A DNA stretch of 64,000 nucleotides from positions 332,701 to 396,700 of the forward strand of contig CAZIUK010000001.1 in the NCBI GenBank assembly GCA_964542785.1. The letters run 5' to 3'. Position numbers and translations under genes: made by a program. Under the pieces are notes generated by a model. That model saw nothing but the letters and a program-made list of their open reading frames with translations. It searched no databases and was not told the origin of the DNA. The stretch is from an uncultured Planctomycetales bacterium. Lineage in GTDB: Bacteria; Omnitrophota; Gorgyraeia; Gygaellales; Profunditerraquicolaceae. How positions within the stretch are numbered: the first letter of the stretch is position 1; each line of letters starts with the position of its first letter. Below, one piece after another: positions 23,631 through 24,834 of this stretch.

Positions 23631-24834
23631 AAAGATGAATAAAATTGAGAAGTTGATTAATGATCTTTGCCCTGATGGGGTTGAGGTCAAGACGATAGGC
23701 GAAGTTTGTCAGATAAGCCGTGGAAGGGTTATGTCGAAAGACTATTTAGCGACAAATGCTGGTGATCATCCTGTGTACTCTTCTCAAACAGCAAATAATG
23801 GGGTTTTTGGATGTATAAAAACTTATGACTACGACGGTGAATACGTGACATGGACAACAGATGGAGCAAATGCTGGATCGGTATTTTATCGCAACGGCAA
23901 ATTTAGTATTACAAATGTTTGTGGACTGTTGAAGCCAATAAACAGCGATTTGAATACTAAGTTTTTATCTTACATTTTGGGATCAGTTGCAAAGGCTTAT
24001 GTCAGTGCCGGTATGGGTAATCCCAAGCTGATGAGCAATGTTATGGCGAAGGTAAAAATCCCAATCCCGCCACTGATTGTTCAAAAAGAAATTGTCAAAA
24101 TCCTTGATAATTTCACGACGCTGGAAGCGGAGCTGGAAGCGGAGCTGGAAGCGGAGCTGGAAGCAAGAAGGAAGCAGTATGAGTATTATCGGAATGATCT
24201 GTTAACCTTCACAGACAGACAGACAGACAGACAGACAGACAGAACAAGATGGGTAATACTAAATGAAATTATTGATTTTATGAATGGAAAAGGACACGAG
24301 AAAGATATTGATGAAAATGGGAAGTATATTGTTGTGAATTCAAAGTTTGTTTCAACAGAAGGCAGGGTTAAGAAATATTCAGCGAGACAAATTTGTCCTA
24401 TTTTTAGTAATGATATTTTAATGGTAATGAGCGATTTGCCGAATGGGAAAGCATTGGCAAAATGTTTTTATGTGGATGAAGATGATAAATACACATTAAA
24501 TCAAAGAATATGTGCCTTGACGGTGAAAGACGGTAAAGATTTAAATGCTAAGTATTTATTTTATGTGCTAAACAGAAATAGGCAGTTGTTGAAATATGAT
24601 AATGGAGCTGATCAAACAAATTTACGAAAAAATGATATTTTAAAGATCAAGGTGCCTATTCCGATCATGTCAGAGCAAAAACGCATCGTTACGATACTCG
24701 ATAAATTTGACGCATTGGTGAATGATATTTCTATAGGTTTGCCAGCAGAGCTTAACGCTCGCCGTAAACAATACGAGTACTATCGGGATCAGTTGTTAAC
24801 GTTTAAACCGTTGGAGATGCAGAATGCCAACTAA
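23623..24834 (+). CDS. hsdS: Type I R-M specificity subunit S with two target-recognition domains; contains internal simple-sequence repeats
   Basis: It has the two-TRD architecture with conserved repeats ([11 protein letters not shown] and [11 protein letters not shown] after each TRD). Its start overlaps the hsdM stop, and its stop overlaps the hsdR start. Confidence 0.8.
24121..24165 (+). repeat. 12-bp tandem repeat (CTGGAAGCGGAG, about 3.75 copies) encoding (LEAE)n in the central conserved region of HsdS
   Basis: The repeat is visible directly in the sequence. It is analogous to the TAEL-coding repeat in EcoR124I/II. Confidence 0.85.
24211..24242 (+). repeat. (ACAG)8 tetranucleotide microsatellite inside hsdS, currently in frame (TDRQ repeats)
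   Basis: The sequence acagacagacagacagacagacagacagacag is visible directly. Confidence 0.9.

Follow-up and report, generated by a model that had tools for sequence, protein, structure and literature searches.

The 64,000-nucleotide stretch analysed here (the window; positions 332,701 to 396,700 of contig CAZIUK010000001.1, assembly GCA_964542785.1, from an uncultured bacterium of the Omnitrophota) contains a type I restriction-modification operon whose specificity gene, hsdS, carries two different simple-sequence repeats (SSRs), a 12-bp repeat within the central helix of the protein and a tract of eight ACAG units in the linker behind that helix. As far as can be read from the DNA, these two slippery repeats probably let hsdS switch which DNA sequence gets marked. 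I propose that two independent dials make this hsdS a contingency locus, one acting on the reading frame and one on the length of the helix, and I put the probability of this reading at roughly 0.7.

The operon and its two repeats

The genes hsdM, hsdS and hsdR lie in this order on the + strand and form one operon, in which the stop codon of hsdM overlaps the start codon of hsdS (ATG at 23623). The operon, the two repeats and the parts of HsdS, including its two target-recognition domains (TRDs), are as follows.

22041..23630, + strand: hsdM, N6-adenine methyltransferase subunit, 529 amino acids (Pfam N6_Mtase, E=3e-114; HsdM_N, E=8e-20)
23623..24834, + strand: hsdS, 403 amino acids from the ATG at 23623 (Pfam Methylase_S in two stretches, E=5e-59)
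24824..27892, + strand: hsdR, restriction/translocase subunit of the EcoR124 type, 1022 amino acids (HSDR_N, SWI2_SNF2, T1R_D3-like, and EcoR124_C with E=1.5e-71)
24120..24164, + strand: 12-bp repeat GCTGGAAGCGGA, 3.8 copies, encoding LEAE units, proposed spacer-length dial (Tandem Repeats Finder and a second repeat search)
24211..24242, + strand: (ACAG)8 tract, encoding a TDRQ linker, proposed frame switch (Tandem Repeats Finder, frame simulation, AlphaFold2 coil 194-208)
23623..24072, + strand: TRD1, residues 1-150 (AlphaFold2 secondary structure)
24073..24201, + strand: central conserved helix D1, residues 151-193, 43 amino acids, holding the LEAE units at 167-182 (AlphaFold2)
Residues 194-208: coil of low predicted local distance difference test (pLDDT) score in AlphaFold2, containing the ACAG-encoded TDRQ peptide at 197-207
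24247..24666, + strand: TRD2, residues 209-348 (AlphaFold2)
24667..24795, + strand: C-terminal conserved helix D2, residues 349-391, 43 amino acids (AlphaFold2)

Tandem Repeats Finder reports the 12-bp unit in 3.8 copies and the ACAG unit in 8.2 copies (24211-24243, of which eight units are full), each at 100% identity. Three full copies of the 12-bp unit mean that the window holds a three-unit LEAE state. Both repeats fall within a single open reading frame (ORF; 23599/23623-24834), which is hsdS and matches Methylase_S twice, and thus the original prediction, made from the letters of the sequence, that hsdS carries two different simple-sequence repeats is correct, as is its assignment of the LEAE units to the central region of the protein. 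Apart from the ACAG tract, the 64 kb contain no tetranucleotide repeat of three or more units, and the longest homopolymer anywhere in the window is at most 9 nucleotides, so that the tract is neither a product of chance nor part of a slippage-prone background.

Since HsdR carries the EcoR124_C domain and HsdS matches the S subunit of EcoR124 (PDB 7bst, phmmer E=3.4e-32), this is a type I restriction-modification system of the EcoR124 (type IC) family; the prediction of a type I system agrees with this match and with the Pfam domains of all three subunits. In the phmmer alignment the LEAE stretch lies opposite LTAEL(4-residue gap)TAELNMR of the EcoR124 chain, and has one unit more than this chain with its two TAEL units, which upholds the earlier likening of the 12-bp repeat to the TAEL repeat. 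The AlphaFold2 model of HsdS, built on 40 homologues and with a mean pLDDT of 84.7, has the arrangement TRD1, D1, linker, TRD2, D2. The two helices are equally long, at 43 residues, and their ends are nearly identical in sequence. This near-identity is the property thought to permit half-subunits of type IC systems to form homodimers (PMC3874165).

Frame outcomes and the proposed switch

I simulated the translation of hsdS for 3 to 13 ACAG units. Full-length HsdS results at n=5, 8 and 11, whereas the product ends in ...QTEQDG* at n=7 or 10 and in ...QNKMGNTK* at n=6 or 9. The two stop codons that are reached follow from the simulation and the sequence:

24254..24256, + strand: TAA stop reached at n=7/10
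24264..24266, + strand: TGA stop reached at n=6/9

The out-of-frame products are 209-215 amino acids long, stop 4-8 codons beyond the tract, and keep TRD1 and the whole of helix D1. The tract itself is free of stop codons in the three forward frames, each of which encodes a cyclic permutation of TDRQ, and so the frame in which the ribosome leaves it decides alone which product is made. It had been predicted that the tract lies in frame between the two TRDs and that a change of one unit would truncate HsdS after TRD1; the simulation and the position of the linker in the model both bear this out.

In the mechanism that I propose, the first dial would be turned by slipped-strand mispairing, altering n of the (ACAG)n tract in the linker behind the central coiled-coil helix. 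With n=3k+2 (8 in the window), full HsdS with TRD1 and TRD2 would be made and an asymmetric bipartite site would be recognised. With any other n, the 209-215 amino acid protein of TRD1 and helix would homodimerise on HsdM2 and recognise a palindromic site composed of the TRD1 half-site, as proposed by likeness to the truncated forms of NgoAV, EcoR124I and EcoDXXI. The second dial would be the 12-bp repeat in the central helix, where the gain or loss of one LEAE unit would lengthen or shorten the helix by about one turn and with it the spacer of the recognition site by 1 bp, as between EcoR124I and EcoR124II; the allele in the window would represent the three-unit, EcoR124II-like state. For this population I infer switching, activity of the truncated HsdS and recognition motifs of this kind.

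The activity of the truncated protein is what separates this mechanism from a plain ON/OFF switch, in which any out-of-frame n would abolish functional HsdS, so that restriction and modification are lost together and no palindromic specificity arises. Many poly-G states of the gonococcal ngoAV locus are predicted to be without an active methyltransferase (PMC9577141), and the truncated products simulated here do bear short out-of-frame tails. However, the three D1-retaining truncations that have been tested, EcoR124I delta50, EcoDXXI deltaC and NgoAV, are all active homodimers (PMC3874165), and in the window the truncation falls beyond a complete D1 that is nearly identical to D2 and of equal length. 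Plain ON/OFF switching, the strongest of the rival readings, is in my view unlikely.

Variation of the repeats in a sister operon

Natural variation at both repeat sites is observed in relatives of the operon, most clearly in a sister operon whose HsdM (P0124) falls into the same 90%-identity protein cluster as that of the window, and whose hsdM is 84% identical in nucleotides. The sister element is found on ten JGI metagenome contigs (L136-L145 range), with the gene order phage tail J, radical-SAM genes, small ORFs, a 58-amino-acid ORF, and hsdMSR. Seven contigs hold the whole operon, and across these there are 0 mismatches over 5,733 bp outside two repeat sites. The 12-bp unit GCTGGAAGCGGA is present in 2 or 3 full copies in otherwise identical sequence, while a poly-G tract between the TRDs occurs as G9 (in frame), as G10, which splits the gene into 211+174 amino acids, and as G12 (again in frame). 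An eighth contig has G13 at this junction. Hence the window's own 12-bp unit is polymorphic in a clonal background in the sister allele, and it is in this allele, not in the window's own, that otherwise identical hsdS genes differ in 12-bp copy number in the manner of EcoR124I and EcoR124II. Across metagenomes, this 5.7 kb operon is clonal except at the helix repeat and the junction repeat, where all of its variation lies.

Relatives of the window's allele

The HsdS relatives in the protein collection are mosaics, and the exact HsdS of the window is not among them. The nearest on the upstream side (L010/P0010) is 95% identical in nucleotides over 23201-24209, which covers the 3' end of hsdM, TRD1 and helix D1; it has 2 full copies of the 12-bp unit where the window has 3, no junction SSR and another TRD2. 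Conversely, P0004 (L001-L004) combines the TRD2 type of the window with another TRD1, and has (ACAG)5 at the identical junction. In a further relative (L152), a TRD2 that is 78% identical to that of the window follows an out-of-frame poly-G tract. Taken together with the poly-G of the sister operon and the relatives with ACAG, this indicates that the junction between the TRDs has repeatedly been occupied by SSRs of different kinds.

The complete genome of another member of the Omnitrophota, Ca. Velamenicoccus archaeovorus LiM (L015), contains both repeat types in one gene: three LEAE units and one LEAR, encoded by a 12-bp unit other than that of the window, GAACTAGAAGCA, are followed by (ACAG)12. 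This tract is out of frame. The reading frame of TRD1 and D1 stops 13 codons beyond it, and a 183-codon ORF for TRD2 is intact in the +1 frame.

Another branch of the HsdS family shows near-identical proteins of different length, P0003 (590 amino acids) and P0008 (407 amino acids), as well as P0267 and P0266, with the truncation within an ERERE stretch. This stretch is probably encoded by an (AG)n tract, which suggests a dinucleotide SSR that toggles between two-TRD and three-TRD forms.

ACAG tracts across the HsdS family

In order to see how widely such tracts occur, I surveyed one genome per species (GTDB) for the YYRxxLLxF end of the helix followed within 30 nucleotides by at least 4 ACAG units. 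This yielded at least 119 stretches, and 116 parsable loci from species-representative genomes were analysed. Among these listed loci, the tract has between 4 and 119 units (median 13) and begins 0-28 nucleotides past the end of YYRxxLLxF. Sixty-eight of them have at least 620 nucleotides beyond the tract, and each of the 68 has, behind the tract, an ORF of 183 codons or more in one of the three frames. This ORF is in frame with the helix in 28 and out of frame in 40, a split that fits a random phase of 1/3 to 2/3 (binomial p=0.20). At least 40 contigs among the listed loci break off at the tract. Taken together, intact TRDs out of frame, extreme variation in length and assembly breaks are what a reversible SSR switch classically leaves behind. 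Among EcoR124-like hsdS genes the ACAG junction tract is a pan-phylum feature, and all three frames are populated.

Two architectures are found among the listed loci. In the majority (gut Clostridia, Veillonella, Cardiobacterium) the tract lies behind a TRD1-TRD2-helix arrangement and a third TRD follows, which is the extended type; in a minority it lies behind the central helix, as in the window. At least 13 of the surveyed genomes have 2-4 LEAE, LTAE or LEAT units in the helix that precedes the tract. These include Ca. Velamenicoccus archaeovorus. The co-occurrence of helix repeat and ACAG tract is therefore the rule for the central-helix class, not an oddity. The original prediction had called the presence of both mechanisms in one hsdS unusual, and this has to be given up, in view of these 13 genomes and because hsdS genes with SSRs form a documented class (PMC7383803).

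Very long tracts occur in Clostridium sp. CAG:510 ((ACAG)>=94, that is, at least 94 units), Cardiobacterium valvarum NCTC13294 (62 units) and Clostridium sp. ASF356 (58 units), at loci such as L059, L086 and L057. Most loci of gut Clostridia have the three-TRD architecture with the conserved flanks AETGxTIL-(TDRQ)n-ELxAIKLIQYVFGY.

Static repeats, artefacts and other routes to half-subunits

The repeats could also be static relics, in which case the TDRQ linker from the ACAG tract would be flexible and simply tolerated, the LEAE units would be fixed in the helix, and the differences between genomes would stem from old divergence and TRD shuffling. For the exact allele of the window, the metagenome, protein and contig look-ups gave nothing in which variation could be observed, and 8 units is near the short end of the 4-119 range among the listed loci. 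However, both repeats are 100% homogeneous in the DNA, the clonal sister operon differs over its 5.7 kb at the two repeat sites only, the TRD ORFs are intact in 40 of the 40 out-of-frame loci listed, which is not expected of dead pseudogenes, and at least 40 assemblies break at the tract. I regard static repeats as quite improbable. Even less credible is an assembly artefact in which the repeat counts match no real molecule: the source is a metagenome-assembled contig, and the window's HsdS is missing from a protein collection in which its HsdM and HsdR are present, but the repeats (33 and 45 bp) are shorter than typical reads, the hsdS ORF is intact and in frame, and the same unit sequences with their flanks recur in independent assemblies.

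Recombinase-driven switching by an inverton was rejected, as tblastn finds one hsdS match in the 64 kb and the inverted repeats are weak and at chance level; none within 21700-28000 is significant, and the scan of neighbouring ORFs showed no recombinase. Recombination of the two conserved helices with each other could cause a deletion, as a rare event; the repeat search found no extended direct repeat spanning helices D1 and D2. Elsewhere in the family, two proteins of 192 amino acids (P0276, P0278) are stand-alone half-HsdS that end in ...LLTFDYE, the exact C-terminus of the full-length P0240. Their form suggests that TRD2 was lost when the two conserved helices recombined, which would be a third route to half-subunits.

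Weighing the two-dial reading

Comparative evidence from the relatives supports hypermutability of the tract. Several observations nevertheless speak against two active dials in the window's own hsdS. Logan contigs from the same population (SRR29782965, SRR29782968) begin within hsdR or downstream of it and do not reach hsdS, and those with the upstream helix-turn-helix (HTH) gene are all shorter than 3 kb and end before hsdS. Ten predicted HsdS phase variants (three start codons, n=5-10) gave 0 exact matches in a collection of 15 billion proteins. As the tract is short, with 8 units, its switching rates may be low. The comparison of (ACAG)5, (ACAG)8 and (ACAG)12 spans diverged alleles rather than one clone, and the clonal series comes from the sister allele, whose junction repeat is poly-G and not ACAG; homopolymer lengths in short reads moreover carry some risk of error, whereas the difference in 12-bp copy number does not. 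Finally, activity of a truncated HsdS with its out-of-frame tail of 4 or 8 residues (EQDG or NKMGNTK) is a prediction.

Some of the look-ups have limits of their own. The 15-billion-protein collection contains the window's HsdM and HsdR and six other proteins of the window, which trace to a 646 kb NCBI contig, and none of the HsdS forms looked up is among its entries; the source record may have passed over hsdS or labelled it a pseudogene. A homology search with the TRD1 half favoured proteins with two TRDs, which match twice, and missed P0010, which has an identical TRD1, so that retrieval was incomplete and absences in this search are weak evidence. A look-up of contigs with the exact HsdM sequence returned no record, the hsd region had no megablast match in the phage and plasmid collections, and a scan of metagenome DNA for the 3' junction of the tract returned one contig that was already known and nothing further.

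Genomic setting

The operon lies between a phage-like region and further defence genes:

1..21700, + strand: phage-like region with major head, tape measure and tail J-like genes, three radical-SAM genes and small regulatory ORFs (PHROGs, Pfam)
21850..22023, + strand: small HTH_17 gene, 57 amino acids, 18 bp upstream of hsdM (Pfam PF12728 on an identical product)
27958..30919, + strand: SIR2-HerA defence pair, directly downstream of hsdR (PADLOC SIR2 E=2.5e-91, HerA E=1e-203)

The phage-like region (1-21.7 kb), which includes a CII-like regulator, adjoins the hsd operon. The synteny of phage tail and hsdMSR is kept in the diverged sister element (L136/L139/L143) at 70-88% nucleotide identity, and because the homology reaches from the tail genes to the end of hsdR and no further than position 27902 of the window, hsdMSR behaves as terminal cargo of a phage element. 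No attachment (att) sites or integrase were seen in the window; attL would fall outside it. The GC content drops from 46-47% to about 40% at hsdM (~22 kb). The earlier claim that the system is prophage-borne is thus supported by the conserved synteny with phage tail genes and tempered by the lack of att sites and integrase in the window and by the step in GC content (40% vs 47%), and I consider a prophage-borne hsdMSR probable.

Behind the last phage-like ORF, a terminator-like hairpin (~21709-21745) precedes the HTH_17 gene, which is excisionase/AlpA-like. The sister element (L136-L145) has its 58-amino-acid ORF, with no Pfam match on record, at the same position upstream of hsdM, and for this reason the HTH_17 gene might control the hsd operon, or mark an island or excision. 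Three consecutive radical-SAM/Fer4_12 genes (15566-19016) separate the phage tail module from the small regulatory ORFs, and L136 has two radical-SAM genes at the equivalent position.

The SIR2-HerA pair belongs to the same defence neighbourhood as the hsd operon, and is not part of the switch. Its GC content of ~34% is below that of both the operon and the phage module, and the sister element has DUF5655 there instead. At 30932-36565, a PEGA domain is the one family match among the ORFs, and a 301-amino-acid ORF (36591-37496) has a weak AbiGi-like match (PADLOC E=1.4e-7). These ORFs, which lie between SIR2-HerA and the host genes, could be further, unrecognised defence or cargo genes. Host genes such as clpB come after the defence region, and neighbouring housekeeping proteins fall into clusters of 90% identity or more with proteins from metagenome-assembled genomes of Candidatus Omnitrophota; the host part also contains trehalose-related genes (56982-61903), a GT20 trehalose-6-phosphate synthase-like gene and a TreT-type synthase.

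Comparison with known systems

Each element of the locus has a precedent, in EcoR124I/II, in NgoAV and in the hsdS genes with SSRs in REBASE, and the locus is therefore a well-supported further example of a mechanism known from other bacteria. EcoR124I has 2 TAEL units and an N6 spacer, EcoR124II has 3 units and an N7 spacer, so that copy number sets the spacer (PMC3874165); the change of one bp per repeat unit is based on EcoR124I/II and on EcoDXXI hybrids, and truncated HsdS subunits of type IC are active homodimers (PMC3874165). The hsdS of the window resembles that of EcoR124I/II, and of EcoDXXI and EcoPrrI, in having a 12-bp repeat for a four-residue unit in D1, and is homologous to it, next to an HsdR with EcoR124_C. 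However, the unit is LEAE in the window and TAEL in EcoR124, and EcoR124 is without a frameshifting SSR between its TRDs.

For the ACAG tract the closest likeness is to NgoAV, a type IC system of Neisseria gonorrhoeae FA1090, in which a poly-G tract switches the specificity between GCAN8TGC and GCAN7STCA (PMC9577141). Its natural HsdS1, of 208 amino acids, is truncated and recognises the palindromic GCAN8TGC, and when fused to the second TRD recognises GCAN7STCA (PMC9577141, PMC3874165). In both systems the SSR lies at the 3' end of the part that encodes TRD1 and the central helix, and the ~208 amino acids of the one are close to the 209-215 predicted for the other. In contrast to NgoAV, where the tract is poly-G and the downstream half partly decayed, the window has an ACAG tract, an intact TRD2 and full length in its assembled state, and its host is an environmental member of the Omnitrophota with the operon adjoining a prophage.

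According to the main text of PMC7383803, SSRs are present in 7.9% of REBASE hsdS genes, always between the TRDs; one example is the tetranucleotide GCAA[7-29] in hsdS of Haemophilus (Glaesserella) parasuis. This gene shares with that of the window a tetranucleotide SSR between the TRDs and the toggle between a full-length and a truncated form, and differs in unit and host. The extended three-TRD hsdS genes that Atack et al. describe there, in Mannheimia haemolytica (G[n]) and Fusobacterium nucleatum (AAGAC[n]), have one TRD more than the two-TRD gene of the window, in which the SSR lies behind the central helix. ACAG tracts in hsdS are not mentioned in that main text, and may stand in its supplementary tables. 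In the searchable literature I found no description of a widespread ACAG junction tract, which supplementary tables may list, of an ACAG tract in the Omnitrophota or on a phage-linked operon, or of a clonal metagenomic series in which only two repeats vary. With the SpnD39III inverton (shufflon) the locus has the outcome in common, a phase-variable specificity of HsdS, yet the mechanism is different, as the window has a single hsdS.

A more far-reaching scenario can be put forward as speculation that I hold rather doubtful. In this scenario, a temperate phage of an ultra-small, host-dependent member of the Omnitrophota would carry a type IC operon diversified by a frame switch and a helix-length dial, so that clonal lysogens would hold several methylomes and restriction specificities at once, and the junction of (ACAG)n and TRD would be an ancient, horizontally exchanged module of more than 100 species in many phyla.

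What the two-dial reading itself offers is a clean natural example and not a new principle, and it will not surprise the specialist. It takes SSR-driven switching of type I specificity beyond host-adapted pathogens, to the uncultured environmental phylum Omnitrophota and an operon linked to a phage. This switch is probably behind many hsdS genes called as 'split' or 'half', and behind assembly breaks in metagenome-assembled genomes, which is of relevance for the annotation of hsdS 'pseudogenes', for the reading of metagenomic methylomes and for models of the phage-host arms race with bet-hedged defence specificity. Set beside EcoR124I/II and NgoAV, the hsdS of the window would join the length dial of the former to a frame switch like that of the latter.

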